Positions 1,582 through 58,628 of a DNA stretch of 61,666 nucleotides are shown here, piece after piece (the stretch's first letter is position 1; each line of letters opens with the position of its first letter). The notes under the pieces are model-generated. The model was not told where the DNA came from. It ran no database searches and saw nothing but the letters and a program-made list of their open reading frames with translations. The stretch covers positions 1 to 61,666 of IMG/VR virus record IMGVR_UViG_2874968258_000001, one strand, 5' to 3'. Source of the DNA: a virus (lineage: Duplodnaviria > Heunggongvirae > Uroviricota > Caudoviricetes). A program made the translations under genes and the position numbers.

Positions 1582-1643
1582 AAAAAGAACAAATGGTAGT
1601 GTCCGCTATTGCCAGTACACCTCAAGGATAAGGCTAAAAAATC

Positions 1644-6097: not shown

Positions 6098-6373
6098 GTG
6101 GCTTCTGTTTCTATCAGCTGTCCCTCCTGTTCAGCTACTGACGGGGTGGTGCGTAACGGCAAAAGCACTGCCGGACATCAGCGCTATCTCTGCTCTCACT
6201 GCCGTAAAACATGGCAACTGCAGTTCACTTACACCGCTTCTCAACCCGGTACGCACCAGAAAATCATTGATATGGCCATGAATGGCGTTGGATGCCGGGC
6301 AACTGCACGCATTATGGGCGTTGGCCTCAACACGATTTTACGTCACTTAAAAAACTCAGGCCGCAGTCGGTAA
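6098..6373 (+). CDS. insA: IS1 InsA
   Basis: 91-aa [43 protein letters not shown]... Confidence 0.95.
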
Positions 6374-6795
6374 CCTCGCGCATACAGCCGGGCAGTGACG
6401 TCATCGTCTGCGCGGAAATGGACGAACAGTGGGGCTATGTCGGGGCTAAATCGCGCCAGCGCTGGCTGTTTTACGCGTATGACAGTCTCCGGAAGACGGT
6501 TGTTGCGCACGTATTCGGTGAACGCACTATGGCGACGCTGGGGCGTCTTATGAGCCTGCTGTCACCCTTTGACGTGGTGATATGGATGACGGATGGCTGG
6601 CCGCTGTATGAATCCCGCCTGAAGGGAAAGCTGCACGTAATCAGCAAGCGATATACGCAGCGAATTGAGCGGCATAACCTGAATCTGAGGCAGCACCTGG
6701 CACGGCTGGGACGGAAGTCGCTGTCGTTCTCAAAATCGGTGGAGCTGCATGACAAAGTCATCGGGCATTATCTGAACATAAAACACTATCAATAA
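6292..6795 (+). CDS. insB: IS1 InsB frame (made as InsAB' by -1 frameshift at the A6C motif)
   Basis: 167-aa ORF overlapping insA in the -1 frame; identical copy present in the second IS1. Confidence 0.9.
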
Positions 6796-7198
6796 GTTGG
6801 AGTCATTACCCGTTAAAACATCTGCAGATAATGACGTTGACTTGGATACAGATGGATTCAGACAACTGAGGATATCGTGCCCATCCCCTTCTGCCAGCGG
6901 TGCGATTATATTGAGAAAAGCTTCTTATGAATTCGGCAAAAGTATAGGTGTATTTGATTTTGCAAACAATGCATCACCAGCGACGATGACATTTTTGATC
7001 CCAATATATAAAGATGATGATTTTGATTCAGATACTGTTGGTTTTACATTTGCGTTCAAGATGCCAAGAGGCCAGTTTTTTGTAGATGTAAAAGAAAACG
7101 GGAATATCAGAGCTGGAGTTAATGTTAATGGCGAGTCGGGAGTGACCTACGAAAATTGCAAATTGAATATGAAAGATATTAATGATGATTAATATATA

Positions 7199-7226
7199 AG
7201 CCGCCAGAAATTGGCGGTTTTTTTAT
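7199..7226 (+). terminator. Rho-independent terminator after the disrupted lipoprotein gene
   Basis: Hairpin CCGCCAGAAATTGGCGG followed by T7. Confidence 0.6.
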
Positions 7227-7238
7227 AGTGGAGACAGT

Positions 7239-8630
7239 ATGGACTTACCTTCTTTACCTTCTCTTTCTTCACTCTTTTCTGCATCTTCAGGTATCAATTG
7301 GCGCGATAATCTTTACGACGCTTCATTTCGTGGCGTTCCGTTTTCGGTGGAGAGCGACGAGGGTTCGTTCGGACGCCGCGTTCAGGTCCATGAATACCCA
7401 AACCGTGACAAACCGTACACGGAAGATCTCGGGCGTGCCACGCGACGGCTGACGATTAATGCGTATCTCGTTGGTGATGATTACGCAGAGCAGCGCGACA
7501 GGCTGATTACAGCGATTGAAACCGCCGGGCCGGGGACGCTGATCCATCCGCAGTTCGGTGAAATGCAGGGCTGTATTGACGGGCAGGTGACCGTTTCTCA
7601 CTCCGGCACTGAAGGCCGTATGTGCCGGGTTTCATTTCAGTTTGTTGAGAGCGGGGAACTGTCATTTCCGGTCGCCGGAGCTGCAACCGCCAGAAAACTG
7701 GAGGAGTCGTCCGTATTCCTGGATGAGTTGATTGAAGACATGTTCGGCGATTTTGATCTCGCGGGAATACCGGACTTTATTCAGAACGATGTTATTGCCC
7801 GGACGACCGATATGCTGGGAACCGTTCAGACAGCTTTCAAAATGGTTAATTCGGCTGTTTCTGCCGGAGCGAGACTACTGCAGGGCGATTTATCCGTCAT
7901 TCTGATGCCGCCGTCGGTTGCCAGTGATTTTGTGCATACGTTGCAGGATACCTGGCGGGCCGGAACCCGGCTGGTGGATAACACACAGGATCTGGTGCAG
8001 TCCATAACGACAATGTCCGGCATTACGCTGGACCCAGGACTGGCACCGCGTGCGGTGTGGCCCACAGATTCCGCATCGGTTATCAGGCAAAAACAGCAGA
8101 CAAACCTTGTGGCTGCTGTCATCCGGACGACGGCAATCAGCGAAGCCACAAGGGCGGTCACTTCACTGCCACAACCCGGAAGCCTGGTGAAAAATCAGCA
8201 GGCGGTTGTGGCTGTTGGTGGTTCCACTGAACGTCAGTCCGATATTATTCACGTTTCTCATCCGGCACTTGACAGCGTGGCAGCCAGCACAGGACAGGAT
8301 GAGAGAGCGCAACCACCCACGCGGGAAAATCTCACCATCATACGCGAATCGCTGAACGCGGCGATTGAACAGGAGCTCAGGCGTACGGCGGATGACAGGC
8401 TGTTTTTTCAGCTGACGTCATTACGTACAGAACTGAACCGGGATATTCAGGCGCGTCTGGTTCAGACGGAGGAAACCGCAGAGCGAACGCCAGCGGAAGT
8501 TCTGCCTGCGCTTGTTCTGGCTGCGTCATGGTACGACGATGCGTCCCGTGAAACTGATATCCTGGATCGAAATGCCATCTCTCATCCGGGCTTTGTTCCG
8601 GTCAGGGCATTAAGGGTACCCGTCAGATGA
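7239..8630 (+). CDS. Mu gp43-like DNA circulation / tail protein
   Basis: 463-aa ORF between TMP and baseplate genes in Mu-like order. Confidence 0.65.
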   Translation: MDLPSLPSLSSLFSASSGINWRDNLYDASFRGVPFSVESDEGSFGRRVQVHEYPNRDKPYTEDLGRATRRLTINAYLVGDDYAEQRDRLITAIETAGPGTLIHPQFGEMQGCIDGQVTVSHSGTEGRMCRVSFQFVESGELSFPVAGAATARKLEESSVFLDELIEDMFGDFDLAGIPDFIQNDVIARTTDMLGTVQTAFKMVNSAVSAGARLLQGDLSVILMPPSVASDFVHTLQDTWRAGTRLVDNTQDLVQSITTMSGITLDPGLAPRAVWPTDSASVIRQKQQTNLVAAVIRTTAISEATRAVTSLPQPGSLVKNQQAVVAVGGSTERQSDIIHVSHPALDSVAASTGQDERAQPPTRENLTIIRESLNAAIEQELRRTADDRLFFQLTSLRTELNRDIQARLVQTEETAERTPAEVLPALVLAASWYDDASRETDILDRNAISHPGFVPVRALRVPVR

Positions 8631-9709
8631 ATGATACCGTTTTACTTCGGGTTTCCGGTCGCGAATGGGGCGGCTGGACATCCGTCCGTATCAGTGCGGG
8701 CATTAACCGTATTGCCCGGGATTTTAATGTTGCCATTACCACCCGCTGGCCCGGAAGCCGGGATTATCAACCCCGGATAAAAAATGGTGAGCTGGTTGAA
8801 GTGCTTATCGGGGATGAGCCTGTGCTCACCGGATATGTGGAGGCACTACCGCTTCGTTATGACGCCAGCAGCGTCAGCATGGGAATTGTCGGGCGAAGCA
8901 AAACAGCCGATCTGGTTGACTGCTCTGCTTTGCCACTCCAGCAGAGCGGAAAAAACCTGCTCAGAATAGTCAGTGAACTGGCTGCGCCATTTGGCATCAC
9001 CGTTGTTGATGCTGGCGTGCCGCAGACAGCGGTGATTGATGCCCAGCCGGAACACGGCGAAACCGTTGCCGATTGTCTTAACCGGTTACTGGGGCAGGTT
9101 CAGACGCTGGCTTATGACGATGAATGCGGGCGACTGGTTCTGGGAAAACCCGGAACAGGTAAAGCGGCGACGGCGCTGGTGCTGGTGCTGGGAGAGAATA
9201 TTCTTTCCTGTGACACGGAAAGAAGCATCAGAGAGCGGTTTTCTGAATATCAGGTCAGTGGGCAGCGCCCGGGCAACGACGATGATTTTGGTGAGGCCAC
9301 CATTGCCGCAATACGTCAGACCATTCAGGACAGTGGCGTGACCCGTTATCGCCCTTTGTTGATTCAGCAGTCAGGCACAGCAACGACAGCAACCTGTAAG
9401 GCCCGTTGTGAATTTGAAGCGCGCCAACGGGCTGCGCTTACCCGTGAGACAACATATACGGTTCAGGGCTGGCGGCAGGGCAGTGGCGCGTTATGGCGTC
9501 CGGGGTTATCTGTCATCGTTTTCGACCCGCTGAATAATTTTGATAATGATGAACTGGTGATCGCAGAAGTTACCTATAACCAGGACGACCGGGGCACGAC
9601 GACTGAATTACGGGTTGGCCCGGCAGATGCTTATCTCCCCGAGCCTGTTACCGCCAGGAAGAAAAAAATGTTGAGGAGGATTTCTGATGAACGGGTTTTC
9701 TCTTCGTAA
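8627..9709 (+). CDS. Mu gpP (gp44)-like baseplate hub protein
   Basis: 360-aa ORF overlapping the previous stop; position in baseplate cluster. Confidence 0.65.
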   Translation: MNDTVLLRVSGREWGGWTSVRISAGINRIARDFNVAITTRWPGSRDYQPRIKNGELVEVLIGDEPVLTGYVEALPLRYDASSVSMGIVGRSKTADLVDCSALPLQQSGKNLLRIVSELAAPFGITVVDAGVPQTAVIDAQPEHGETVADCLNRLLGQVQTLAYDDECGRLVLGKPGTGKAATALVLVLGENILSCDTERSIRERFSEYQVSGQRPGNDDDFGEATIAAIRQTIQDSGVTRYRPLLIQQSGTATTATCKARCEFEARQRAALTRETTYTVQGWRQGSGALWRPGLSVIVFDPLNNFDNDELVIAEVTYNQDDRGTTTELRVGPADAYLPEPVTARKKKMLRRISDERVFSS

Positions 9710-10220
9710 TCTGATTTCCCGGGCTGTCATCACGGCGGTGGATTCCGCCAGAAAGTGTCAGTCTGTAGGGTTGAAAATGATAGCCGGAGATCAGAAACAA
9801 CACGTTGAGCACCTTGAACCTTATGGTTTTACATCTGCCGCACAGAACGGTGCTGAGGGCGTTGCTTTATTTCCGGCGGGCGATCGTTCTCATGGTGTGG
9901 TTGTGGTCGTGGCTGACAGACGTTACCGGCTGAAAGGACTGAAACGTGGGGAAGTGGCGCTTTATGACGATCTGGGACAGTCCGTTGTCCTGACCCGTTC
10001 CGGTATTGTGGTGGACGGGGCCGGGAAGGCCATAATTTTTAAAAACGCGCCTAAAGCGCGCTTTGAAATGCCAGTCGAATCCACCGCCGATATTACTGAC
10101 AATTGCGACAGTGGCGGACTCAGCATGCAGCAAATGCGGCAGGCCTACAATGCCCACAAACATACCGAAAATGGTGATGGTGGCGGGATCACTGACACGC
10201 CGGATCAACCGATGGGCTGA
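9687..10220 (+). CDS. Baseplate assembly protein V-like (Mu gp45-like spike)
   Basis: 177-aa ORF in baseplate cluster. Confidence 0.6.
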   Translation: MNGFSLRNLISRAVITAVDSARKCQSVGLKMIAGDQKQHVEHLEPYGFTSAAQNGAEGVALFPAGDRSHGVVVVVADRRYRLKGLKRGEVALYDDLGQSVVLTRSGIVVDGAGKAIIFKNAPKARFEMPVESTADITDNCDSGGLSMQQMRQAYNAHKHTENGDGGGITDTPDQPMG

Positions 10221-10225
10221 AAATC

Positions 10226-10636
10226 ATGATGATTAATGTTAACGGGCGACCCGTGTCGACCGGGGCTTCGATCGACCTTCTGACGCGTGCTGTGATTATT
10301 TCGCTTTTTACATGGCGGCGTGCCGGGCGTGATGATGCACCACGGATATTTGGATGGTGGGGGGATACCTGGCCTGCGGTTCAGAATGATCGCACGGGGT
10401 CGCGTTTGTATCTGTTGCGACGCAGCAAGCTGACAAATAAAACCCCGCAGCTTGCCAGAGATTATGTCCGTGAGGCGCTGGCGTGGATGGTGGAGGATGG
10501 TGTTGCTTCCCGTCTTGATATTAACGCTGTCCGGACCGGGACAGACTCGCTGGCACTTGCCATTACCATTTACCAGCGTGACGGCAATATTCACAACATT
10601 ATTTTTGATGATATCTGGAGTGAACTGAATGGCTGA
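10226..10636 (+). CDS. Mu gp46-like baseplate protein (gp25/W-like)
   Basis: 136-aa ORF in baseplate cluster. Confidence 0.6.
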   Translation: MMINVNGRPVSTGASIDLLTRAVIISLFTWRRAGRDDAPRIFGWWGDTWPAVQNDRTGSRLYLLRRSKLTNKTPQLARDYVREALAWMVEDGVASRLDINAVRTGTDSLALAITIYQRDGNIHNIIFDDIWSELNG

Positions 10637-11237
10637 CAGTCAGTTTTATCGCCCCGGCCTCCCGCAACTTATTTCTATGATCCGGAGCGATTTATTAACC
10701 CGCTTTGAGCAGGATACGCTGCTTCGTCGTATGGATGCGGAAGTGTATGCCCGTGTACAGGCTGCAGCCGTACACACGTTGTACGGGTATATCGATTATC
10801 TTGCCAGAAATCTGTTACCGGACGTGTGTGATGAAGACTGGCTGTACCGGCACGCCAGAATCAAACGCTGCCCGCGAAAAGAAGCGGTGGCAGCCCGGGG
10901 ATTTGTGCGCTGGGATGGCGTAGAGGGGACGCCGGTATTGCCAGCGGGAACGCAGATCCAGCGTGATAATCAGGTGACCTTTACCACGACGGCGACGGTG
11001 ACCGCAGCCGATGGTCTTCTCCGGGTGCCTGTTGTGGCAGACGAACCGGGATCGGCGGGGAATACGGATGATGGTATTGCCATGCAACTGGGAACACCCG
11101 TCAGTGGTCTGCCGTCCACAGGGTACGCTGACACCATTACAGACGGTGAAGATATTGAAAATCTGGAAATATGGCGTGCCCGCGTTATGGAACGTTATTA
11201 CTACATTCCACAGGGGGGCGCAGGTAATGACTCCAAC

Positions 11238-11741
11238 TTATTGATAGTGTTTTATGTTCAGATAATGCCCGATGACTTTGTCATGCAGCTCCACCGATTT
11301 TGAGAACGACAGCGACTTCCGTCCCAGCCGTGCCAGGTGCTGCCTCAGATTCAGGTTATGCCGCTCAATTCGCTGCGTATATCGCTTGCTGATTACGTGC
11401 AGCTTTCCCTTCAGGCGGGATTCATACAGCGGCCAGCCATCCGTCATCCATATCACCACGTCAAAGGGTGACAGCAGGCTCATAAGACGCCCCAGCGTCG
11501 CCATAGTGCGTTCACCGAATACGTGCGCAACAACCGTCTTCCGGAGACTGTCATACGCGTAAAACAGCCAGCGCTGGCGCGATTTAGCCCCGACATAGCC
11601 CCACTGTTCGTCCATTTCCGCGCAGACGATGACGTCACTGCCCGGCTGTATGCGCGAGGTTACCGACTGCGGCCTGAGTTTTTTAAGTGACGTAAAATCG
11701 TGTTAAGGCCAACGCCCATAATGCGTGCAGTTGCCCGGCAT
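11238..11741 (-). CDS. insB: IS1 InsB frame
   Basis: Same translation as the first copy; ORF track shows the part from an internal Met (11238..11615). Confidence 0.85.
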
Positions 11742-11935
11742 CCAACGCCATTCATGGCCATATCAATGATTTTCTGGTGCGTACCGGGTTGAGAAGCGGT
11801 GTAAGTGAACTGCAGTTGCCATGTTTTACGGCAGTGAGAGCAGAGATAGCGCTGATGTCCGGCAGTGCTTTTGCCGTTACGCACCACCCCGTCAGTAGCT
11901 GAACAGGAGGGACAGCTGATAGAAACAGAAGCCAC
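11660..11935 (-). CDS. insA: IS1 InsA
   Basis: Identical 91-aa InsA translation on minus strand. Confidence 0.95.
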
Positions 11936-12487
11936 TGGAGCACCTCAAAAACACCATCATACACTAAATCAGTAAGTTGGCAGCATCACCGGGGGCGCAG
12001 ACCCTGATTATGTTATCTGGGCGAAAGAAGTTCAGGGTATTAACCGTGCATGGACTTTCAGACACTGGAAAGGCACTGGAACGGTTGGCGTGATGGTGGC
12101 GACAAACGATCCGGAACGCCCGGCCCCGGATGAAAGCGTGATTAACGCAGTCAGGGACCACATCCTTCCTCTGGCACCTGTTGCCGGAAGCGGATTGTAT
12201 GTATTCGGTGCCACAGAAAAAGTCATCCCGATGACGATTGCATTATCGAAAGACACACCGCAGATCAGGACTGCAATAAAAGCAGAGCTGAATGCACTGA
12301 TGTTACGGGATGGTGTGCCAGAGGGGCGTATGTATCTGTCCAGAATCAGTGAGGCCATCAGTTTGTCTGCTGGTGAAGTGGCCCACCGGTTAATCGTCCC
12401 TTCATCGGATATTGACCTGGGGGAGACCGAGCTTCCGGTGCTCGGCGAGATCACCTGGCAGGCTTATGACCCGGCAAGGAGTAAATA

Positions 12488-13078
12488 ATGGATTCGTTAC
12501 AGGATGATTATACAAAGCTGCTGTACGGACTGATGCCGCCGGGGCCTGCATGGTCAGATACCGACGGTGTACTTGACGGTCTGGCACCATCGCTTGTGCG
12601 TGTTCACCAGCGGGCTGATGAACTGGTGATTGAAATCGATCCCGGTCAGTCCACAGAGCTGATTGAACGTTATGAAGAATTGTATGGTTTACCTGATTCC
12701 TGTTCCCCTGTCGGAACCCAGACATTACGCCAGCGTCAGCAACGTCTTGAAGCAAAAGCCAATGTGGCTGGTGGCATAAATGAGCAGTTCTTCCTGGATC
12801 AGCTTGAGGCGCTGGGATATACCGGCGTAACGATCGAACAGTTCCAGCACTTGGATGCAAGCCCCGATCCGGAATGGGGAGATCGCTGGCGTTATTTCTG
12901 GCGTGTGACGTTGCCGATGGATGCCGGTGCTCAGTGGCAGACATGCACGGACGCCTGCAACACACCGATCCGGACGTGGGGGGATACGGTTGCGGAGTGC
13001 GTGATTAATAAATTATGTCCGTCACACACCGTCGTTTTATTTTCCTATCCAGATGAGGATGAAGATGCACAGGATTGA
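12488..13078 (+). CDS. Mu gp48-like tail protein (YmfQ/DUF2313-like)
   Basis: 196-aa ORF between baseplate J and tail fibre. Confidence 0.6.
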   Translation: MDSLQDDYTKLLYGLMPPGPAWSDTDGVLDGLAPSLVRVHQRADELVIEIDPGQSTELIERYEELYGLPDSCSPVGTQTLRQRQQRLEAKANVAGGINEQFFLDQLEALGYTGVTIEQFQHLDASPDPEWGDRWRYFWRVTLPMDAGAQWQTCTDACNTPIRTWGDTVAECVINKLCPSHTVVLFSYPDEDEDAQD

Positions 13079-14105
13079 TACGCTGACTGCGGTAAAAGAT
13101 AAGTTTGGTCCGGGTAAGAACGGATTTACTGACGGAAATCTTCGCACAGGACGTCTTGCTACCTGGCTGAACAGTGCCATGTGGAATGCCATTCAGGAGG
13201 AAATCTGTGGTGTCATTGAGAAGGCCGGGATAGAACTGAATAAAGAAGAACACGACCAGCTATATAAGGCTATATTATTGCTGGTGGGCGGTGCAATTAA
13301 CGAAGAGGCATTGCTGATAAAAAATAACCTTTCGGATGTGGAAGACAGGGATGAGGCTGTTGAAAACCTCGGATTAAAACCCACGGTGGATAAGGCAAAA
13401 AATGCCGTTCAGCGTGATGGCGACACCATGACCGGAGAGCTGAAAATCCGTGGTGTTAATGCGCTGAGGATTTTCAACGAAGCTTTTGGCCTGATTTTTC
13501 GTCGTTCGGAAGAGTGCCTGCACCTTATTCCCACCAGTGAAGGTCAGGGGGAAAATGGCGATATTGGTCCCCTGCGCCCGTTCACCATTAATCTGCGGAC
13601 GGGTGAAATATCCATGTCGCATAAAGTGTCTGTTGGCGGTGGTTCGCAGGTCAATGGTGCGCTGGGTATCGGCGTTCAGAACGCCCTGGGGGGGAATTCA
13701 ATTGTTCTTGGTGATAATGACACCGGATTCAAACAGAATGGTGATGGCCTGCTGGATGTTTATGCCAATAGCGTGCATGTGTTGCGTTTTCAGAGTGGCA
13801 GTATCCAGAGTAATAAAGCTGTAAACGTTACAGGACGGGTAACACCGTCAGACTACGGAAACTTTGATGCCCGTTACCAGCAGCGAAATGGTGGCGTGCA
13901 GGATGTGCGGTATGGTTATGAAATGTATTACACCCCCGGCAGTAACACCGTTTCGTGGACATTTCGCTCACCTTCGGGACACGGGCTGTCAGGGATATCG
14001 ATATCGGATACCGGCCGTAACTCAGCGGATAACGTCAACGGCGTGTATTACCGACCGCTGCAAAAACTGATTAATGGCACCTGGTATAACGTAGCGAGTA
14101 TTTAA
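13065..14105 (+). CDS. Tail fibre protein
   Basis: ~347-aa ORF, Gly/Asn/Ser-rich C-terminal region, followed by a tfa-type gene. Confidence 0.65.
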   Translation: MHRIDTLTAVKDKFGPGKNGFTDGNLRTGRLATWLNSAMWNAIQEEICGVIEKAGIELNKEEHDQLYKAILLLVGGAINEEALLIKNNLSDVEDRDEAVENLGLKPTVDKAKNAVQRDGDTMTGELKIRGVNALRIFNEAFGLIFRRSEECLHLIPTSEGQGENGDIGPLRPFTINLRTGEISMSHKVSVGGGSQVNGALGIGVQNALGGNSIVLGDNDTGFKQNGDGLLDVYANSVHVLRFQSGSIQSNKAVNVTGRVTPSDYGNFDARYQQRNGGVQDVRYGYEMYYTPGSNTVSWTFRSPSGHGLSGISISDTGRNSADNVNGVYYRPLQKLINGTWYNVASI

Positions 14106-14107
14106 CA

Positions 14108-14653
14108 ATGTTGCATTTAAAAAATATTACGGCAGGTAATCCGAAAACCGCGGAATAATATCAGCTGACAAAACAGTATGATGTCACCTGGCTTTTTTCG
14201 GAAGACGGCAAAAACTGGTATGAAGAACAGAAGAACTTTGCCAGTGACACCATAAAAATGGTTTACACCGGAGACGGGCGCGTGGTGTGGGTCGGTAAGG
14301 ATGTGACAGGCATTGAACCCCGTAACGCCAGTGTTATTGAAGTTCCTGATATTACCGCCAACCGCCGCATTACCGCGCCGGGTTACTGGTTTTACCGCAA
14401 TGATGAATTTGTCTTTGACTACAGACTCAAAGCGGAAGATGAGCGTGATGCCCTTCTGGCTCAGGTCAGTGCCCGGACAGGGGAATGGGAAGAAGACCTG
14501 CTGCTGGGGCTAATCAGCGACGAAGACCGGGAAAAACTGAAAGCGTACCGTATTTACGCGAAATCGCTGCAGGCGATGGATTTCAGCACCATCACTGATA
14601 AATCCTCATATAACGCCATTGAATGGTCCGTCTCTCCGGAAGGTTCTTCCTGA
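14108..14653 (+). pseudogene. Tail fibre assembly protein with in-frame ochre stop at codon 17 (14156-14158)
   Basis: ATG 14108 gives MLHLKNITAGNPKTAE-stop-YQLTKQYDVTWLFSEDGKNWYEE...; the frame is continuous with the annotated ORF 14258..14653. Confidence 0.55.
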
Positions 14654-14676
14654 TTTAATTTATCGCGAGAAAAACT

Positions 14677-15945
14677 ATGTCTGTAGTGATATCAGGTGCG
14701 CTGACTGATGGCGCAGGCATCCCCATGTCCGGATGCCAGATTATTCTGAAATCCCGTGTAAACACCTCAGAAGTGGTGATGCGTACCAGGGCTGATGTAG
14801 TGACCGGAAATAACGGTGAATATTCGTTTGAGGCACAGGTCGGAAAATATTGCGTGTATCTGAAACGGGACTGGCGCGACGAGTACTGTGTTGGCGACAT
14901 TGCTGTATACGACGACTCAAAGCCCGGCACGCTGAATGACTTTCTGATTGCTCCTGATGAGGGCGACCTGAAACCGGATGTCGTCAAACGCTTTGAGGAA
15001 ATGGTGGCGCAGGCGCAGCAGAGCGCCGGGGCCGCAGCCGGAAACGCACAGCAGACGGCGCAGGATGTGGCGGCAGCCGCAGGTTATGCCCGCGCAGCAG
15101 AGCAGGCCAAAAATGACATTGATGCTGCGCTGACCGGCACTCTGAAAACGGCTAACCATCTGTCTGAAATCGCAGCAGCAGGCGAAAAGGCACAACAGAA
15201 GTCCCGGGATAATCTGGGGCTGAAAAGTGCGGCCACGATGGAAGCACAGAGCGACATTTACGACCGGACAAAAGGCCGTCTGGCGATACCCGGCGCATTC
15301 GGCTTTGGGTGTGCTTTTCTGCCTGAAGATGTTATCCGTTTTGACACTAAGAGTGATTTCCTGGCCTGGGTAAGGAATGCGCTGCCAGGTGAATATTCCG
15401 TTGCTGGCCCCTACGACATCATCATACCCGACACACGGTTTGAAGGGGTGCTCAGCATCCGGTGGACTGATGCACGCCCTGAGACAACAGAACCGAGGTA
15501 CAGAGCCAAATCCCTTACTTTTTACGGCATTAACGGCCCCATTTATCACACCCGCTACTGCTACTGGCCCATATCCAGACTGACTGGCTGGGTGAAAATA
15601 AATATAACCACAGAAGATATTATTTACAGAATCGTGGCGAGCTCTGTCTGCAACAGATGGGGAGACCCTGACATTGGCGGGCTGATTATTGCTGCGTACC
15701 AGGGAGAAGCTGACGGTGATAAAGTCATCAGACTTGTCAGGGGGCAGTCATACAGAGGCTCACGACTGGGACCGGTGGGGATTTCAGTGCCCAGTACTCC
15801 CACCGGAACGTATATAGCATCCCCACAATTTTTCATTACGGGATGTTCAGAGCATTCATTACCGGGGTCATATAGCGCCCTGTCCGGGGTGCCGGATGCT
15901 CATGTCTCTGGCGCAATGCCCGGGCTTTTTATTCGCACATCGTGA
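14677..15945 (+). CDS. Side tail fibre protein with lambda Stf-like N-terminal domain and a different C-terminal domain
   Basis: N-terminus MSVVISGALTDGAGIPMSGCQIILKSR...[13 protein letters not shown] parallels the stf gene at 54196 ([27 protein letters not shown]...[13 protein letters not shown]). Confidence 0.65.
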   Translation: MSVVISGALTDGAGIPMSGCQIILKSRVNTSEVVMRTRADVVTGNNGEYSFEAQVGKYCVYLKRDWRDEYCVGDIAVYDDSKPGTLNDFLIAPDEGDLKPDVVKRFEEMVAQAQQSAGAAAGNAQQTAQDVAAAAGYARAAEQAKNDIDAALTGTLKTANHLSEIAAAGEKAQQKSRDNLGLKSAATMEAQSDIYDRTKGRLAIPGAFGFGCAFLPEDVIRFDTKSDFLAWVRNALPGEYSVAGPYDIIIPDTRFEGVLSIRWTDARPETTEPRYRAKSLTFYGINGPIYHTRYCYWPISRLTGWVKINITTEDIIYRIVASSVCNRWGDPDIGGLIIAAYQGEADGDKVIRLVRGQSYRGSRLGPVGISVPSTPTGTYIASPQFFITGCSEHSLPGSYSALSGVPDAHVSGAMPGLFIRTS

Positions 15946-15955
15946 GGAATGCACC

Positions 15956-16519
15956 GTGGAAATTAAAAAAATCATTAATCCCCGTTATACCGAAAGTGGC
16001 GCAGTAGACTGTGACGTTTTTTTTGACGACAGGGACCTGGCAGTCCCCTACACAGCCACCGCTGATGATGTCGCACCGACGGGTCAGCAAATCTGGCAGG
16101 AACTGCAAAGTGGCAAATGGGGTGAGATAGCCCCATTCACTGTGACACCAGAAATGCTGGAAGCGGCCAGAGAGGCCAGACGTCAGGAAATTGAAGCATG
16201 GCGCACAGAACAGGAGGCGAAGCCGTTCACGTTTGAATGGAATGGTCGTATCTGGAATGCTGGCCCCGACTCACTGGGCCGCCTGTCCCCGGTAGTCATG
16301 CTGGCAAAATCTGTCACAGCACAAACGCATATGGCGTGGGGTGATGCCGATAATCAGCAGGTGAAACTGTCGATGCCGGAACTGGAAGAACTGGCGGCAG
16401 CAATGGTGCAGGCGCAGGTCGATCGCAACGATGAGATTTATCGCCGTCAGCGTGAAATGAAAGAGGAGCTGAGTGGTCTGGAGGATTTGGGAACAATTAG
16501 AGCGTTTGATGTTACGTAA
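15956..16519 (+). CDS. Putative tail fibre assembly / chaperone protein
   Basis: GTG start with GAGGA 8 nt upstream, immediately after the stf-like stop; family assignment uncertain. Confidence 0.4.
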   Translation: MEIKKIINPRYTESGAVDCDVFFDDRDLAVPYTATADDVAPTGQQIWQELQSGKWGEIAPFTVTPEMLEAAREARRQEIEAWRTEQEAKPFTFEWNGRIWNAGPDSLGRLSPVVMLAKSVTAQTHMAWGDADNQQVKLSMPELEELAAAMVQAQVDRNDEIYRRQREMKEELSGLEDLGTIRAFDVT

Positions 16520-16565
16520 TTGGTAAGCTGCATCGTGTTAAATTGTTACCCTTATTTACAACTAG

Positions 16566-16600
16566 AAAAGCCTCTGACTTCATAATCAGAGGCTTTTTTG
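16566..16600 (+). terminator. Rho-independent terminator
   Basis: AAAAGCCTCTGA...TCAGAGGCTTTTTT hairpin plus T-run. Confidence 0.65.
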
Positions 16601-16727
16601 AAATGCACGTGCATTTTGCGTGTATATTTTTGTCTTTTTCTGGTCCGCTTACTGTCTGGTCAGTGTCCGTAAGTGACTGTTTTTATAGTCTCTGTCCGGT
16701 TGCAGTCCTGTCAAAAGTGGTGGAGCT

Positions 16728-16762
16728 GGCGGGAGTTGAACCCGTGTCCGAATATTTGCAAT
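16728..16762 (-). other. Partial copy of ssrA (tmRNA) 3' end; candidate prophage attachment-site core
   Basis: Minus-strand TTCGGACACGGGTTCAACTCCCGCCAGCTCCACCA matches the E. coli tmRNA 3' terminus as I recall it, with one mismatch; similarity stops upstream, so it is a fragment. Confidence 0.6.
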
Positions 16763-16827
16763 GCGTTGATTTATAACGAATAAAATTTAAAGTTGGTTCT
16801 TACGGCTCTTTTGCGGATATTTTACTA

Positions 16828-17646
16828 TCAATTCGTAGTCCTGCCATATTTACGTTTTTTCTTGCGGTTTGTTTCTGGTTTCTTCTCTCGGTTATTGTCT
16901 ACTTTTTCATGTATATCCATATTGAACCAAGAAGCATGCGAAACCTCACTTAATGGAAATATGATACTGGTATCAACTCCATCAAGATCGTTGTAATCAT
17001 TTGAAAACAGGACCCTTAGTGTGTCCTTGTCCCTGTAACCAGATATGATTGGGCTAATAGAAATTTCAAGGTTAGGGCCTTGTTTTTCGTTTGGCTCACT
17101 AATCATGTTAACTGTTCCGACATATACTTTGCGGCATTTCAGGCTTATCAGTACCGGTCTGTTTGTAGTCGCTGAATCAAAGAATAGCTGACCAAGTGAG
17201 CCATCAGACAACAGTTTTTCCAACTCATTAAGCCTGATTAGTTGCTTTGCGAAATTGATAGAAATTGCATTATTGGATGCAGAACTAATAGTTTTTGCTG
17301 CCACAAACATACGAAATTTGCATATCTGCAACCAAATAAAAGCAACTCCACAAGTCGCCACTGATAGCAGGATGAGCCATGATGTTATCCTGTTTTCTTT
17401 AGGGTCTGCACTACCATCAATAAGATGTGATACCCATGTGACCAGTGTAAGGCTTGGTATAAAGTACTTGGTTGCATACGCCAGCACGACTGCAACAATG
17501 AACGAGTACACACCGTACGTGGCCACCTTCATATAGAGAAGCTGGCCGTCGTAACGGTGGAGTCGATAGAATAATTTGATGTTATGGGGCGATGTAACCA
17601 GTAAGGATCCACTTACTAAAAGTGGAATGATCAGCAATGCAAACAT
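16828..17646 (-). CDS. Hypothetical membrane protein, three N-terminal hydrophobic helices plus ~160-aa soluble domain with basic tail
   Basis: 272-aa ORF; hydrophobic segments at residues ~2-17, 41-62, 87-108; AT-rich codon usage; 4 bp downstream of the 82-aa ORF. Confidence 0.55.
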   Translation of the reverse strand: MFALLIIPLLVSGSLLVTSPHNIKLFYRLHRYDGQLLYMKVATYGVYSFIVAVVLAYATKYFIPSLTLVTWVSHLIDGSADPKENRITSWLILLSVATCGVAFIWLQICKFRMFVAAKTISSASNNAISINFAKQLIRLNELEKLLSDGSLGQLFFDSATTNRPVLISLKCRKVYVGTVNMISEPNEKQGPNLEISISPIISGYRDKDTLRVLFSNDYNDLDGVDTSIIFPLSEVSHASWFNMDIHEKVDNNREKKPETNRKKKRKYGRTTN

Positions 17647-18193: not shown

Positions 18194-19369
18194 TCAAGCC
18201 TGTTTTGTATCATTAGTATTTTTAGCGGTATGTCCGTCATATGCAGCAAGGTAACTGCCATAGTGACGAAATAGCATTTCTGGTCCCTTATGGCCCATCT
18301 GGCCTGCAAGCCAGAACAGGTTCGCACCACGGCTGATATGGCTGGTGGCGAATGTATGCCTGGTCTGATATGGGTTACGGTACCGGATACCTGCTTTACG
18401 TAAGGTTGGTATCCACGCTTTTTTCCTTATCGCATCGGCGCTGGCCCACGGTTTGTTTGTCTTTGGATCTTCAAAGACAGTAGCATCCTTCATGAATGTA
18501 AATGGCTTCTGATTTATCAGCGCCAACATTGCCTCTTCTGTCAGTTCAACTTTACGAGTACCGGCTTTTGTCTTTGTTCCTTTGATAACACCGACAACAC
18601 TTGCGCTCTGGACATGGGCAGTTTTTCCAACAAAGTCGATATCACGCCATCGAAGGGCACATAATTCAGAACTACGCAGGCCTGTATGTATAGCGAACCG
18701 GAACAGATTTTCCCATTGTTTGTTTCCGGCTGCTGCTAGTAATGCATCAACTTCTGCTGGTGATAGCGGATCAACCACGTAGCTGCTTTCTGCTTCTGAC
18801 TTATCACTTTGGTAGCGCGAAGCAGTTACCAACGATACGGGGTTAATTTGAAGTACCCCATCGGTTACGGCTTCATCAAGTGCTGACCGCAGGAAAGATA
18901 ACTGGTTGCGAATTGTTTTTAAGGTCGTTTTCTGGCTTTGAATCCACGCTTTCAGGATTGCTGGTGTTAATTCACTTGCAGGGCAAATGTGGAGTGAGGC
19001 TAACGCACTACGGCATTTTTTATAACCACCAATCGTAGAGGGTGAAAGTTTTCTCGTTTCGCAGATTTCAAGGTATTCGTCCAGGTACATTTTTACCGTT
19101 TTGCCTGCAGCAGCATTACCAAAAATTTTCAAACGAGCAGAACGGGGAAAATATTCCGCATAAATGAATGTTCCCCTTTCGATCTTATTATGAATTTCGC
19201 CGAGTGTGCGCTCGGCGTATTTTATGTTCTTTGGTATTACTTCCAGATTGGAAAGAGGCTCACGACATTTAACTCCTTTGTAGGTGAAAGTTATATTGAT
19301 CGTTTCGCCCTGGCGGTGTTTCCTGATTGTTACGCCGCGCGGTAGTTTGAGCAGTTTTGTCTGGCCCAT
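18194..19369 (-). CDS. int: Phage integrase (tyrosine recombinase)
   Basis: 391-aa ORF with R...HxxR...Y catalytic motifs (LRSSELCALRW, YQTRHTFAT, LFRHYGSY). Confidence 0.9.
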   Translation of the reverse strand: MGQTKLLKLPRGVTIRKHRQGETINITFTYKGVKCREPLSNLEVIPKNIKYAERTLGEIHNKIERGTFIYAEYFPRSARLKIFGNAAAGKTVKMYLDEYLEICETRKLSPSTIGGYKKCRSALASLHICPASELTPAILKAWIQSQKTTLKTIRNQLSFLRSALDEAVTDGVLQINPVSLVTASRYQSDKSEAESSYVVDPLSPAEVDALLAAAGNKQWENLFRFAIHTGLRSSELCALRWRDIDFVGKTAHVQSASVVGVIKGTKTKAGTRKVELTEEAMLALINQKPFTFMKDATVFEDPKTNKPWASADAIRKKAWIPTLRKAGIRYRNPYQTRHTFATSHISRGANLFWLAGQMGHKGPEMLFRHYGSYLAAYDGHTAKNTNDTKQA

Positions 19370-22745: not shown

Positions 22746-23420
22746 TTAGGCCTTTATTGTGTATCTTCTTGGTTTTCCCGAGAAAATCACTGTACCAATT
22801 ATAGAGCAATTACCGTTAATCTTAATGTAAGGCTCAGGCCAGTTTGGGTTTAATGCTTTGAGATAACGCTGTGTTCCATCTTCTATCAATCGCTTGAAGG
22901 TGGTTTCGCCTGAATCGTGCATCAATGCAATAACGTCGTCACCGTGGCAGGCAGGGACTTCAGGATCAACAAAAATCATGTCTCCCGGGCGGTACTCATC
23001 AATCATTGAATCACCAATCACCCGCAAGATATAAGTCATTTCGCCACAGGGTACAGGGCAGGGATAAGTTTCTGCTGTGCTCAAATCAACCTCAGAATAG
23101 CCAACTTCTTTCCATGCTCCGGCCTGTACCCATGATATGACAGGGACTAACGTTATTTGTTTGTTAGTGATTGAAACATCAGGTTTTTTTGTGATGTTCG
23201 TGGTCTGGTGTTCTTGATCAAGCCATCCGACAGGCAGGTCGAAACATTTTTCGATGTGCCTTGCCATGCTGTCACCGATATTTTTAGTAGCACCATCTCC
23301 CATAAACCTGCTGGTCTGGGTTGGCTCGCGATCAATCATGGTGGCAAAGGAAGAATTCCCGCCAACACCATCTCTCAGTTTTCTGGCGTTAGACCGCCGG
23401 ATGTCATGGACTGTTTTCAT
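22746..23420 (-). CDS. CI-type repressor (HTH plus LexA-like S24 peptidase domain)
   Basis: 224-aa ORF; GDSM serine motif and conserved lysine region; divergent from a cro-like gene. Confidence 0.85.
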   Translation of the reverse strand: MKTVHDIRRSNARKLRDGVGGNSSFATMIDREPTQTSRFMGDGATKNIGDSMARHIEKCFDLPVGWLDQEHQTTNITKKPDVSITNKQITLVPVISWVQAGAWKEVGYSEVDLSTAETYPCPVPCGEMTYILRVIGDSMIDEYRPGDMIFVDPEVPACHGDDVIALMHDSGETTFKRLIEDGTQRYLKALNPNWPEPYIKINGNCSIIGTVIFSGKPRRYTIKA

Positions 23421-25364: not shown

Positions 25365-26183
25365 ATGAGTATGGAGCTGATGGTTAAAGCGATGAAAATT
25401 CGAGTGGGTAATCCATTGCGAAAACTGGTTCTGATCAAGCTGGCTGATAATGCCAGCGATCAGGGTGAGTGCTGGCCCAGCTACCAGCATATTGCTGACC
25501 AGTGCGAGATTAGCAAACGTTCTGTGATGAATCATATTGCGGCCCTTTGTGAGTCCGGGCTGGTAAAAAAAGTCACCCGGAAAGGTGAAAAAGGTAACTC
25601 AAGTAATATCTATCTCCTTCATCTGGATGGTGCAGGAGATTCACTAGGGGGTAGTGCAAATAATTCACTATCTGGTGCAGCAAATTCACCAGGTAGTGCA
25701 GGAGTTGCACCAGGGGGTAGTGCAGGAGATTCACCCAGAACCAGTCACTCTTTTGAACCTGTCAAAGAACCAGTCAATGAACCAATAGCTGTTGGTGCAT
25801 CAGTTGATGAGTCCGTGCGAGTTCGTTCAAACCGACCGGAATACTCTCCGGAGTTTGAGCAGGCATGGCTGGTATATCCCAAACGTGCTGGTGGCAATTC
25901 AAAATCTGCAGCCTTCAAAGCCTGGAAAGCCCGTTTGAATGAGGGAGTAAACCCCGAAACCATGCTGGAAGGTGTGAAACGCTACGCGGGCTGGGTATCT
26001 GCGATGGGTAACAGCGGCACACAATTTGTGAAACAGGCTGTCACGTTCTTTGGTCCGGATCGTCATTTCGAAGAATCCTGGGAAGTTCCTGCGGTATCTG
26101 CAGCCAGACGCGAGGACCCGTACTTCAAAGCCAGTTACGACAACGTGGACTACAGCCAGATCCCGGCAGGATTCAGGGGGTGA
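25365..26183 (+). CDS. Replication initiator (lambda O-like) with N-terminal HTH and Gly/Ser/Ala linker
   Basis: GGAGG RBS; HTH-like N-terminus; iteron repeats lie inside the gene as in lambda O. Confidence 0.6.
   Translation: MSMELMVKAMKIRVGNPLRKLVLIKLADNASDQGECWPSYQHIADQCEISKRSVMNHIAALCESGLVKKVTRKGEKGNSSNIYLLHLDGAGDSLGGSANNSLSGAANSPGSAGVAPGGSAGDSPRTSHSFEPVKEPVNEPIAVGASVDESVRVRSNRPEYSPEFEQAWLVYPKRAGGNSKSAAFKAWKARLNEGVNPETMLEGVKRYAGWVSAMGNSGTQFVKQAVTFFGPDRHFEESWEVPAVSAARREDPYFKASYDNVDYSQIPAGFRG
25629..25735. repeat. Iteron-like repeats (putative origin) inside the O-like gene
   Basis: Five ~15-bp units GTGCAGGAGATTCAC / GTGCAAATAATTCAC / GTGCAGCAAATTCAC / GTGCAGGAGTTGCAC / GTGCAGGAGATTCAC at ~20-23 bp spacing. 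Confidence 0.6.
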
Positions 26184-26674
26184 TCATGAGTCTTTTGAAT
26201 GAAGTTCAGAAATTCATTGAAGCCCATCCGGGGTGTACTTCCGGAGACATTGCGGATGCTTTTGCAGGTTACTCACGGCAGCGCGTTCTGCAGTCAGCAA
26301 GCAAGTTACGTCAGAGTGGGCGTGTGGCTCACCGTTGTGAAGGAGATACACGCAGACATTTCCCGCGCCTGACTGAGAGAGCGCAGGAACCGGAACCACA
26401 ACCAGTTCGAGAAACCAGACCTGTGCGCAATTTCTATGTCGGCACTAACGATCCACGGGTGATTTTGTGCCTGACCCGCCAGGCTGAAGAACTGGAGTCC
26501 AGGGGCTTATACCGTCGTGCTGCAACCGTGTGGATGGCGGCATTCCGTGAAAGCCACTCCCAGCCAGAACGAAACAATTTTCTGGCGCGTCGTGAGCGGT
26601 GCTTACGGAAAAGCAGCAAGCGCGCTGTATCGGGTGATGAGTGGTATCTGTCAGGGAATTACGTGGGGGCTTAA
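26180..26674 (+). CDS. Putative regulator: winged-helix N-terminus, PerC-like C-terminal motif
   Basis: C-terminal AEELESRGLYRRAATVWMAAF...RRERC resembles the PerC/Pch motif as I recall it. Confidence 0.4.
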   Translation: MIMSLLNEVQKFIEAHPGCTSGDIADAFAGYSRQRVLQSASKLRQSGRVAHRCEGDTRRHFPRLTERAQEPEPQPVRETRPVRNFYVGTNDPRVILCLTRQAEELESRGLYRRAATVWMAAFRESHSQPERNNFLARRERCLRKSSKRAVSGDEWYLSGNYVGA

Positions 26675-27327
26675 TGAGTAATAAATATTGCCAGGAGCTG
26701 GTGGAACTGCGGAACAAACCAGCCCATGAACTGAAGGAAGTGGGCGATCAGTGGCGCACGCCGGACAACATTTTCTGGGGAATTAACACCCTGTTTGGTC
26801 CGTTTGTTCTGGATCTGTTCACTGACGGTGATAACGCCAAATGTGCTGCGTATTACACGGCGGAAGACAACGCGCTGGCGCATGACTGGTCAGAACGCCT
26901 TGCGGAGCTTAAAGGTGCTGCCTTTGGAAATCCCCCATACAGCCGCGCCAGTCAGCATGAGGGGCAATACATCACCGGCATGCGTTACATCATGAAGCAT
27001 GCCAGTGCCATGCGTGATAAGGGCGGGCGCTATGTTTTCCTGATCAAAGCTGCCACCAGCGAAGTGTGGTGGCCGGAAGATGCAGATCATATTGCTTTTA
27101 TTCGCGGGCGTATTGGTTTTGAACTGCCTGCCTGGTTTATCCCGAAGGATGAGAAGCAGGTGCCGACAGGCGCTTTCTTCGCTGGTGCTATTGCTGTTTT
27201 CGACAAGACCTGGAAGGGACCGGCAATCAGCTACATCGGGCGCGATGAACTTGAGGCATGTGGTGAGGCGTTTCTGGCGCAGGTTCGCCTGCAGGCGGAA
27301 AAGCTGGTCAGGGAGATGGCGGCATGA
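26674..27327 (+). CDS. Phage Dam-family DNA N6-adenine methyltransferase
   Basis: NPPY motif (FGNPPYSR); ATG 26674 with G-rich RBS. Confidence 0.75.
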   Translation: MSNKYCQELVELRNKPAHELKEVGDQWRTPDNIFWGINTLFGPFVLDLFTDGDNAKCAAYYTAEDNALAHDWSERLAELKGAAFGNPPYSRASQHEGQYITGMRYIMKHASAMRDKGGRYVFLIKAATSEVWWPEDADHIAFIRGRIGFELPAWFIPKDEKQVPTGAFFAGAIAVFDKTWKGPAISYIGRDELEACGEAFLAQVRLQAEKLVREMAA

Positions 27328-27650
27328 CGACGTTAACTCAATGCCAGCAGCAGGTGCTGGATATGCTGATTTCTTATCAGAAAGAGCGTGGCTTCCCGCC
27401 AACCAATCAGGAGGTGGCAACCATGCTGGGATACCGTTCGGTGAATGCAGCGGTGGAGCATCTTCGCGCACTGGAGAAAAAAGGCGTCATCACGATAAAG
27501 CGTGGTGTGGCCCGGGGGATCACGCTTCATACCGCGGTGAAGGACGACGACAGCGAGGCGGTCGGGATTATCCGCTCACTGCTTGCCGGTGAGGAAAACG
27601 CAAGGCTGCGTGCAACTCACTGGTTACATGAGAGAGGCCTGAAAGTATGA
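27324..27650 (+). CDS. LexA N-terminal DNA-binding domain protein lacking the S24 peptidase domain
   Basis: Residues 1-70 align by eye with the LexA DNA-binding domain (QQQVLD...GFPPT..E.A..LGYRS.NAA.EHL.AL..KGVI...G..RGI.L); only ~38 aa follow. Confidence 0.6.
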   Translation: MTTLTQCQQQVLDMLISYQKERGFPPTNQEVATMLGYRSVNAAVEHLRALEKKGVITIKRGVARGITLHTAVKDDDSEAVGIIRSLLAGEENARLRATHWLHERGLKV

Positions 27651-28036
27651 AGCTGATCCTGCCTTTCCCGCCCAGCGTGAACACCTACTGGCGACACCCC
27701 AACAAAGGGGCATTTGCTGGTAAGAGCCTGATAAGCGCGGCGGGGCGAAAATTTCAGAGCGCGGCGTGCGCAGCAATAGTTGAGCAGTTACGTCGTCTGC
27801 CAAAACCAACGTCGGCACCTGCTTCAGTGGAGATCGTGTTGTTTCCTCCGGATAACCGGATCCGCGATCTGGACAACTATAACAAGGCGCTGTTTGACGC
27901 CCTGACCCACGCGGGTGTGTGGGAAGACGACAGACAGGTGAAAAGAATGCTGGTGGAGTGGGGACCGGTTATCCCGAAAGGGAAGGTCGAGATCACTATC
28001 AGTAAGTATGAGAAACCGGCGGGTGCAGCCGCCTGA
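27647..28036 (+). CDS. rusA: RusA-family Holliday junction resolvase
   Basis: 129-aa ORF, N-terminus MKLILPFPPSVNTYWR typical of RusA. Confidence 0.8.
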   Translation: MKLILPFPPSVNTYWRHPNKGAFAGKSLISAAGRKFQSAACAAIVEQLRRLPKPTSAPASVEIVLFPPDNRIRDLDNYNKALFDALTHAGVWEDDRQVKRMLVEWGPVIPKGKVEITISKYEKPAGAAA

Positions 28037-31911: not shown

Positions 31912-32964
31912 ATGAAAAATACTGTAAAAATAAACAGTGTTGATTTAATCAACGCTGATTGCCTGCATTTTATTCAGTCCCTGCCTGATGATTCCATTGA
32001 CCTGATTGTTACCGATCCGCCGTACTTCAAGGTGAAACCCAACGGCTGGGACAATCAGTGGAAAGGGGACGAAGATTACCTTAAGTGGCTGGACCACTGT
32101 CTGGCCCAGTTCTGGCGGGTGTTAAAACCTGCCGGAAGCCTTTACCTGTTCTGTGGGCATCGCTTGGCATCTGATATTGAGATCATGATGCGTGAACGTT
32201 TCAACGTGCTTAACCATATCATCTGGGCGAAGCCGTCCGGACGTTGGAATGGGTGTAATAAAGAAAGTCTGCGCGCATATTTTCCTGCCACAGAGCGCGT
32301 TCTGTTTGCTGAACATTACCAGGGTCCATATCGCGGCAAAAGTGACGGCTATGCGGCAAAAGAAAGGGAACTCAAACAGCACATAATGGCACCGCTGATA
32401 TCGTATTTCAGGGATGCTCGTGCCGAACTGGGTATAACGGCAAAACAAATTGCCGAAGCCACAGGTAAGAAAAATATGGTTTCCCACTGGTTTGGTGCCA
32501 GTCAGTGGCAGTTGCCGAATGAGGCTGACTATCGGAAGTTACAGGCACTGTTTTCCCGTATAGCGGCAGAGAAGTTTCAGGAACAACAACTGGAACAACC
32601 ACACCACCAGCTGGTGGCATCTTATGATTCACTGAATCGCAAATATTCTGAATTGCTGGATGAGTTTAAATCTCTCCGGCGCTATTTCTCCGTATCAGTC
32701 TCCGTGCCTTATACCGATGTCTGGATGCATAAACCCGTTCAGTTCTACCCGGGTAAACATCCGTGTGAGAAACCTGCGGATATGCTCCGGCAAATAATCA
32801 ATGCCAGTAGTCGACCTGGTGATCTGGTTGCTGATTTTTTTATGGGATCCGGTTCCACAATAAAAGCAGCAATGGCGCTGGGGCGTCGGGCCTTAGGTGT
32901 TGAGCTTGAGTCAGAGCGGTTTAACCAGACAGTGAAAGAGATAAACGAGCTGGTGGGGAAATAA
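31912..32964 (+). CDS. Orphan DNA methyltransferase (N6-adenine/N4-cytosine type, DPPY motif first, SAM motif last)
   Basis: IVTDPPYF near N-terminus and FFMGSGST near C-terminus. Confidence 0.75.
   Translation: MKNTVKINSVDLINADCLHFIQSLPDDSIDLIVTDPPYFKVKPNGWDNQWKGDEDYLKWLDHCLAQFWRVLKPAGSLYLFCGHRLASDIEIMMRERFNVLNHIIWAKPSGRWNGCNKESLRAYFPATERVLFAEHYQGPYRGKSDGYAAKERELKQHIMAPLISYFRDARAELGITAKQIAEATGKKNMVSHWFGASQWQLPNEADYRKLQALFSRIAAEKFQEQQLEQPHHQLVASYDSLNRKYSELLDEFKSLRRYFSVSVSVPYTDVWMHKPVQFYPGKHPCEKPADMLRQIINASSRPGDLVADFFMGSGSTIKAAMALGRRALGVELESERFNQTVKEINELVGK

Positions 32965-57809: not shown

Positions 57810-58628
<819 letters not shown>

Follow-up and report, generated by a model that had tools for sequence, protein, structure and literature searches.

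A phage-encoded LexA DNA-binding domain without the S24 peptidase domain, a possible RecA-proof surrogate of LexA in Escherichia coli prophages

A stretch of 61,666 nucleotides of tailed-phage DNA (IMG/VR record IMGVR_UViG_2874968258_000001, positions 1 to 61,666; Caudoviricetes), referred to below as the window, was analysed with respect to one short gene. From 1 to about 17.6 kb, the window holds the tail-gene end of one prophage; it also comprises a complete lambdoid prophage, in which the gene in question lies. It encodes a protein of 108 amino acids (aa) that consists of the N-terminal domain (NTD) of LexA and a helical tail, and is called the LexA-NTD gene here. The S24 domain is absent from the product. 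The gene is widespread in Escherichia coli, and several of the phages carrying it possess high-quality SOS boxes. It is proposed, with a rough probability of 0.45, that the protein acts as a RecA-proof surrogate of LexA on SOS-box-like sites during lytic growth.

Gene and product

The open reading frame was read from the sequence as an ATG start, 108 codons and a TGA stop, exactly where the first-pass annotation had placed it (27324-27650, plus strand). The stop of the preceding Dam-family methyltransferase gene (TGA, 27325-27327) overlaps this start as ATGA, and the ATG of the following gene, rusA, overlaps the stop of the LexA-NTD gene in the same way. The gene is therefore coupled in translation to both of its neighbours. 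The C-terminal residues of the product are ...RGLKV. Coordinates are compiled in Table 1.

Identity of the N-terminal domain

Residues 1-65 matched the whole 65-position Pfam profile LexA_DNA_bind (PF01726) with an E-value of 2.9e-19. The second-best helix-turn-helix (HTH) family, HTH_Crp_2, gave an E-value of only 1.6e-3, below its cut-off. In a phmmer search against the PDB sequences, structures of the E. coli LexA NTD matched residues 2-69 (E=7e-16), and BLASTP aligned E. coli LexA over 90 aa with 43% identity (E=8e-22).

An AlphaFold2 model was built from a 21-sequence alignment and reached a predicted local distance difference test (pLDDT) score of 83. Using Foldseek, the model was superimposed on the LexA-DNA complex 3jso with a root-mean-square deviation of 1.0 A over 68 columns at 50% identity. 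The winged helix is formed by helices 6-22, 28-35 and 40-52 and strands 56-58 and 66-68. Residues 1-68 are thus a LexA-specific winged helix, about 50% identical to LexA. The likeness to the LexA NTD over the first ~70 residues, as claimed in the first-pass annotation, was borne out by profile and structure comparison alike, and the alternative of a merely generic winged-helix resemblance failed. The best reading of its origin is descent from a gammaproteobacterial LexA.

Absence of the S24 domain

No Pfam match to Peptidase_S24 was obtained in the 108-aa protein. The NCBIfam equivalog for lexA, TIGR00498, was matched at profile positions 1-91 of 203 only and with 70.8 bits, short of its cut-off of 110.95. 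A tblastn search with the C-terminal domain (CTD) of LexA detected no remnant of that domain near the gene in any frame. LexA proper possesses an S24 peptidase and dimerisation domain with a Ser119/Lys156 dyad, and the phage protein stops at residue 108. The first-pass annotation was hence right in stating that the self-cleaving domain is missing. Because there is no S24 domain, RecA-stimulated autocleavage would be unable to remove the phage protein, and the corresponding earlier claim is supported on the basis of architecture.

The segment LLAGEE of the phage protein aligns to the cleavage-site region VAAGEP of LexA and is predicted to be helical in the model. The idea that the tail retains a LexA cleavage site for cleavage in trans was set aside because the Ala-Gly pair is not kept in distant members of the family.

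DNA-contact residues and SOS-box recognition

In E. coli LexA, DNA is contacted by Ser39, Asn41, Ala42, Glu44 and Glu45 (PMC3091678, PMC13416735). Four of these five residues are kept in the phage protein (Ser39, Asn41, Ala42 and Glu45), and Glu44 is replaced by Val. Across the family, alignments showed Ser39 to be invariant and Asn41 nearly so, with Ala42 and Glu45 mostly kept. Conservation extends to the wing (G61, R64, G65 and I66); in LexA, the wing is credited with enforcing a fixed operator spacing (PMC8565304).

The N-terminal cleavage fragment of LexA keeps some SOS-box binding and repression, and cells therefore have to degrade this fragment with ClpXP (PMC10584840). The phage protein, ending in RGLKV and not in the post-cleavage C-terminus of LexA, would probably escape this route. 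This expectation draws in part on the work of Neher and colleagues (2003).

On the strength of the contact residues, the wing and the precedent of the LexA fragment, SOS-box-like binding by the phage protein is plausible. The suggestion in the first-pass annotation that it could occupy SOS boxes and alter SOS or prophage induction is likewise plausible, as judged from sequence; the consensus-grade SOS boxes on the carrier phages, one of them in the window, also count in its favour. The host SOS regulon, co-resident elements and phage SOS boxes are more likely to be affected than the spontaneous induction of the prophage itself, because the gene should be expressed in lytic growth or infection and not in the quiescent lysogen.

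C-terminal tail

The tail is composed of two predicted helices (residues 75-88 and 93-103; pLDDT about 85), which are connected to the winged helix by a linker of lower model confidence (residues 69-74). Hydrophobic positions of the tail (I83, L86, L87, A97, W100 and L101) are conserved in alignments down to about 40% identity. The tail gave no match among Pfam families or PDB structures. It is a candidate dimerisation element in place of the S24 domain.

Selection, family and prevalence

The ratio of non-synonymous to synonymous substitution rates (dN/dS) was calculated against the window allele for 134 full-length copies, representing 72 alleles, from the loci fetched. Residues 1-70 had a mean dN/dS of 0.02, and residues 71-108 one of 0.11. 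Purifying selection is strong on both the NTD and the tail, and the NTD is the more constrained part.

An exhaustive phmmer search of 1.84 billion representatives resulted in 4580 matches. Short proteins of 106-135 aa with 40-52% identity matched the phage protein over its full length including the tail. PHROG 362, annotated as a phage 'transcriptional repressor', aligned with residues 1-108 over profile positions 1-106 of 106 (E=1.1e-59). A scan of GTDB species representatives returned 80 loci, of which just 5 belong to the short family, all of them from Shigella/E. coli, Citrobacter and Kosakonia. This locus set was unsuitable for a broad survey of SOS boxes, as the other loci are genuine lexA genes.

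The same phmmer search also returned six proteins of 140-350 aa with two LexA_DNA_bind stretches each (P0132, P0133, P0149, P0152, P0153 and P0156), which lie side by side wherever both positions were readable. These proteins could be single-chain pseudo-dimers, an alternative to dimerisation through S24.

The LexA-NTD gene was found in 2233 of 5426 complete E. coli genomes (about 41%). A single genome may hold as many as four copies, and the gene is intact in 2222 genomes. Nucleotide identity was at least 90% in all matching records except one. Fifty phage records hold the gene, including mEp460, SfII, SfIV, SfV, cdtI and 1720a-02, and many Shiga toxin (Stx) converting phages of the Stx2a, Stx2c and Stx2k types are among the carriers. 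The RefSeq entry (WP_000210170.1) is annotated as "LexA family transcriptional regulator", and labels in phage records vary, with "LexA DNA binding domain protein" at one end and the incorrect "SOS-response repressor and protease LexA" at the other. Since a LexA-like annotation already exists, the observation of the first-pass annotation restates known labels.

Operon position and expression

The early-right region of the lambdoid prophage begins with the S24-type repressor, followed by Cro-like, CII-like and Ash-family genes, an HTH_36 replication protein and a PerC-family gene. It continues with Dam, LexA-NTD, RusA, KilA-N, DUF968/HNH and the Q antiterminator, after which the lysis, head and tail genes follow. 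No promoter-like site was found on the plus strand between the cro region and the LexA-NTD gene. Because of its position in the nin operon and the lack of a promoter-like site of its own, the gene should be expressed as a delayed-early gene in lytic growth or infection and not in the quiescent lysogen.

The order (methylase)-LexA-NTD-RusA-(Rha/ANT or KilA-N)-DUF968-Q was recovered in four relatives with 41-51% identity from independent assemblies. The LexA-NTD gene is located directly 5' of rusA in the window, in mEp460, SfIV and Lys8385Vzw, and in the relatives at 41-51% identity.

The operon also encodes, two genes 5' of LexA-NTD, a homologue of PerC-family transcriptional activators (YfdN-like, 26180-26674). 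The arrangement PerC-(Dam)-LexA-NTD recurs in SfIV, Lys8385Vzw and one relative (L011).

SOS boxes on carrier phages

SOS boxes were scored with a position weight matrix derived from 21 E. coli boxes, and all bit scores are indicative only. A scan for CTGT-N8-ACAG sites, as suggested in the first-pass annotation, was run on the window and yielded a consensus-grade box, TACTGTAAAAATAAACAGTG, at 31920-31939. With 22.4 bits it is the best site of the window, compared with a maximum of 18.9 bits in 50 shuffles. The box spans codons 3-9 of an N6_N4 DNA methylase gene in the late region (31912-32964), 4.6 kb 3' of the LexA-NTD gene. It is present without any change in mEp460 and in more than 120 IMG/VR contigs. 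Next to the box, no sigma-70-like promoter was detected. As judged from its sequence and position, the box is a candidate cis target of host LexA, of the LexA-NTD protein, or of both; candidate roles are a roadblock, an internal promoter or other functions. A second palindrome with 14-nt arms (31932-31960) overlaps the box.

Eighty IMG/VR loci encoding a 98-100% identical protein were inspected, and only three strong boxes were conserved among them. The box at the methylase start recurs in 26 loci, a box of 25.8 bits within the cI gene of the mEp460 type in 22 loci, and a box between the LexA-NTD and KilA-N genes in 5 loci. One distant relative has a 21-bit box directly 5' of the operon segment that holds the LexA-NTD gene.

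In SfIV (32618-32660), a near-identical box of 23.8 bits overlaps a -10-like TACTGT about 100 bp 5' of the KilA-N gene, and looks like a LexA-controlled promoter within the nin region. In phages of the SfIV type, rusA is a pseudogene and KilA-N precedes DUF968 and Q.

Very strong boxes inside genes of CI-type repressors were present in mEp460 (31970-31989, 25.8 bits) and in a relative (L005, 836-855, 27.0 bits), about 165-230 nt from the start codon in each case. The LexA-NTD proteins of these two phages are only 48% identical, and the repressor of the relative was confirmed to contain HTH and S24 domains. The boxes suggest LexA control within cI, perhaps through an SOS-inducible antisense or internal promoter.

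With several strong boxes on them, the carrier phages appear to be wired to LexA at several points. Carriers of the cI-internal box possess the LexA-NTD gene in 13 of 13 phage-database records and in 35 of 45 IMG/VR loci. For the methylase-start box, the gene was present in 36 of the 41 IMG/VR contigs with enough upstream sequence.

A further SOS-like box, CACTGTTTAAATATCCAGAT, is located 42 bp 5' of the start of an EcoRII-type C5 methylase gene and scored 18.8 bits, which is about the shuffle maximum. The two top-scoring SOS-like sites of the window are thus both situated at starts of DNA methylase genes.

Proposed function and alternatives

The proposed mechanism would proceed in four steps. 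The gene would be transcribed together with the nin region from the early-right promoter, after induction or on infection. The protein would then pair via the hairpin, via wing contacts on DNA, or both, and bind CTGT-N8-ACAG or a close variant. It would persist while RecA* is active and host LexA is destroyed, because it has neither cleavage machinery nor a ClpXP-targeting C-terminus. Finally, repression of LexA-controlled promoters would be renewed or maintained. Proposed targets are host SOS genes, LexA-controlled genes of co-resident prophages or elements, and phage boxes such as that at 31920-31939. The fuller version, in which a widespread surrogate dimerised by a hairpin unrelated to S24 re-imposes SOS-box repression after the destruction of the host repressor, is doubtful when taken as a whole.

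Several observations weigh against the surrogate function. In 10 of 12 short-family representatives, a hydrophobic or small residue occupies position 44, compared with Glu in 14 of 23 full-length LexA matches, and Arg28 of LexA is Asn in the phage protein. With both the Glu44 to Val and the Arg28 to Asn replacements, specificity or affinity may differ from those of LexA. LexA dimerises via the S24 domain that is missing here, so that strong binding would need the tail to dimerise. The AlphaFold model has a low predicted template modelling (pTM) score of 0.56, and the position of the tail relative to the winged helix is undefined in it. Perfect CTGT-N8-ACAG sites are not enriched in the whole window (2 sites versus 0.72 expected). 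SOS boxes occurred without the LexA-NTD gene in 10 of the 45 and in 5 of the 41 IMG/VR loci mentioned above; these exceptions rule out the boxes as dedicated partners of the gene, and linkage is the simpler explanation. As all of these elements lie within about 5 kb, linkage explains the association of boxes and gene at least as well as function does, and the simplest reading of the phage SOS boxes is as sites of host LexA. Full-text literature searches revealed no experimental study of this family of LexA-NTD-only phage proteins.

Also to be counted here is gp6 of the Bacillus tectivirus GIL01. This LexA homologue is truncated, binds a palindrome of its own at -43.5 of the late promoter P3 and activates this promoter (PMC6182141). 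By analogy, the phage protein might be a regulator that recognises a diverged non-SOS operator and either activates or represses a phage promoter without any effect on host SOS. This main alternative is considered rather unlikely. It agrees with the family-wide loss of Glu44, with the place of the gene, which in all relatives is fixed just 5' of RusA, antirepressor-like genes, DUF968 and Q, and with the frequency of stand-alone LexA DNA-binding domain proteins in unrelated phages. A private operator was sought as inverted repeats with 4-6 bp arms and 2-10 bp spacers across the prophage and as short-range repeats between 22.5 and 33.2 kb. Apart from terminator hairpins and the SOS box, nothing was prominent: neither the prophage nor the surroundings of its nin and late regulatory regions showed a non-SOS palindrome that was repeated or conspicuous, although a lone site would escape this search. 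Moreover, at 50% identity the protein retains the wing and all but one of the five contact residues, a much closer resemblance to E. coli LexA than is seen in LexA orthologues that recognise different boxes, and there is no sequence similarity to gp6.

In another alternative, contacts of the tail with a protein partner such as RusA, RecA*, ClpX or RNA polymerase would be primary and DNA binding secondary. The conserved tail under purifying selection, the invariable adjacency to rusA and the translational coupling to it in the window would fit this explanation. The constraint on the NTD is even stronger (dN/dS 0.02), however, the DNA-contact residues are specifically conserved, and no partner is indicated by any evidence. 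RusA is, in addition, widespread in lambdoid phages without the LexA-NTD gene, e.g. DLP12 and phage 82. This alternative is quite improbable.

A functionless, decaying fragment of a captured lexA gene, as the truncated-LexA look and the alignment of LLAGEE to VAAGEP might imply, is effectively refuted by the dN/dS of 0.02-0.11 across 72 alleles, the conservation of length and tail down to 40% identity in several genera, the 2222 genomes with an intact gene and the absence of an S24 remnant 3' of it.

Comparison with known systems

The closest counterpart of the phage protein is the NTD fragment of E. coli LexA (residues 1-84), which has the same fold, about 50% identity over residues 1-68, and four contact residues (Ser39, Asn41, Ala42 and Glu45) and the wing in common with it. 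Like the phage protein, this fragment and the LexA(Ind-) mutants are not inactivated by RecA*-stimulated self-cleavage. E. coli LexA differs in possessing the S24 domain, Glu44 and Arg28, whereas the phage protein has a conserved helical hairpin of 35 residues, Val44 and Asn28. The E. coli gene is under an autoregulated SOS promoter and the phage gene is part of a lytic operon.

GIL01 gp6 shares with the phage protein that it is phage-encoded, expressed as an early gene and reduced to the LexA DNA-binding domain. It has 66 aa and no tail, and neither its recognition residue, Lys38, nor the palindrome that it binds, GaCACAnnTGTGaC, is LexA-like. BLASTP gave no alignment of the two proteins at E<=100. 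Because of this lack of similarity they are regarded as independent truncations, of a Bacillus LexA and a gammaproteobacterial LexA, respectively. As far as found in the literature, gp6 is the only characterised truncated phage LexA homologue.

Further phage proteins with the same domain-only architecture are included in PHROG 362, PHROG 24920 and BFVD (e.g. Q19Y47 of Mycobacterium phage Wildcat), and BFVD holds many other short phage proteins that comprise a LexA DNA-binding domain and nothing else. Most stand-alone LexA_DNA_bind phage proteins have 65-90 aa and lack the two-helix tail, and functional tests of such proteins other than gp6 were not found in the literature. The protein described here is an uncharacterised representative of this type, set apart by its helical-hairpin tail and its prevalence in E. 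coli and Stx phages.

The proposed outcome, i.e. a mobile element holding down host SOS, is the same as for GIL01 gp7 and plasmid-encoded PsiB. The mechanisms differ in that these two act on the LexA and RecA proteins. PsiB blocks RecA*, and gp7 binds LexA and stabilises it on DNA, whereas the phage protein would replace LexA on DNA.

Phage 1720a-02, a carrier of the LexA-NTD gene, suppresses the co-resident prophage phiNP via Cro; it also alters the induction of several other prophages, and only the effect on phiNP has been explained (bioRxiv 10.1101/2025.01.01.630987).

Neighbouring features

Positions 1-17600 of the window encode a myovirus tail module with sheath (1644-3140), tube (3140-3496) and tape measure (3916-5865), followed by baseplate and fibre genes. 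The gene sizes are those of SfIV. The module appears to belong to a second prophage that adjoins the integrase end of the lambdoid prophage, i.e. the prophages are arranged in tandem.

At the right end of the lambdoid prophage, a GIY-YIG protein (57810-58583, minus strand) matched the model of the anti-phage defence protein PD-T4-3 over its full length (E=7.6e-140). An EcoRII-type restriction-modification pair is encoded at 58906-61666. The methylase of the pair (58948-60423) is of the C5 cytosine type and contains a DNA_meth_N domain; the EcoRII endonuclease is encoded on the minus strand (60458-61666), and its gene runs to the last base of the window. Membership of the LexA-NTD gene in a defence system was examined with PADLOC and rejected, as only a marginal and irrelevant CARF match was obtained.

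Table 1. Positions in the window of the LexA-NTD gene, its parts and further features.
Feature	Position	Strand	Evidence or remark
LexA-NTD-only protein, coding sequence, 108 aa	27324..27650 (stop included)	+	Open reading frame list, sequence, PF01726, PHROG 362, dN/dS
LexA-type winged helix-turn-helix, residues 1-68	27324..27527	+	AlphaFold model, Foldseek, phmmer
Recognition helix, residues 40-52, VNAAVEHLRALEK	27441..27479	+	Alignments
Beta-hairpin wing, residues 56-68, ITIKRGVARGITL	27489..27527	+	Alignments, model
Family-specific C-terminal tail, residues 75-108	27546..27647	+	AlphaFold model, alignments, dN/dS
Shine-Dalgarno-like AGGGAG, 8 nt 5' of the LexA-NTD ATG	27310..27315	+	Read from sequence
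Consensus-grade SOS box TACTGTAAAAATAAACAGTG	31920..31939	.	22.4 bits (position weight matrix); perfect CTGT-N8-ACAG; candidate target
Dam-family DNA N6-adenine methyltransferase, 5' neighbour of the LexA-NTD gene	26641..27327	+	Pfam PF05869, E=1.2e-45
RusA Holliday-junction resolvase, 3' neighbour of the LexA-NTD gene	27647..28036	+	Pfam PF05866; synteny
Integrase, start of the lambdoid prophage	18194-19369	-	
S24-type repressor like YmfK of e14	22746-23420	-	

Significance

The hypothesis of a LexA surrogate is sharp and cheap to test, and it would matter for SOS biology and prophage competition if true. Provided that the protein binds SOS boxes, nearly half of the sequenced E. coli, including lysogens of Stx2 phages, would carry an SOS override that comes into play after a prophage has fired. 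This would bear on the competition between co-resident prophages, on SOS-dependent mutagenesis and antibiotic responses in induced cells, and on the development of Stx phages. A phage with such a surrogate could shut down host SOS functions, the LexA-controlled antirepressors of rival prophages, colicins and SOS-induced defences, and a timed pulse of expression would be possible for phage genes with SOS boxes. If the protein recognises an operator of its own instead, it would add a second and independent example of a phage that took up a LexA domain as a developmental regulator.

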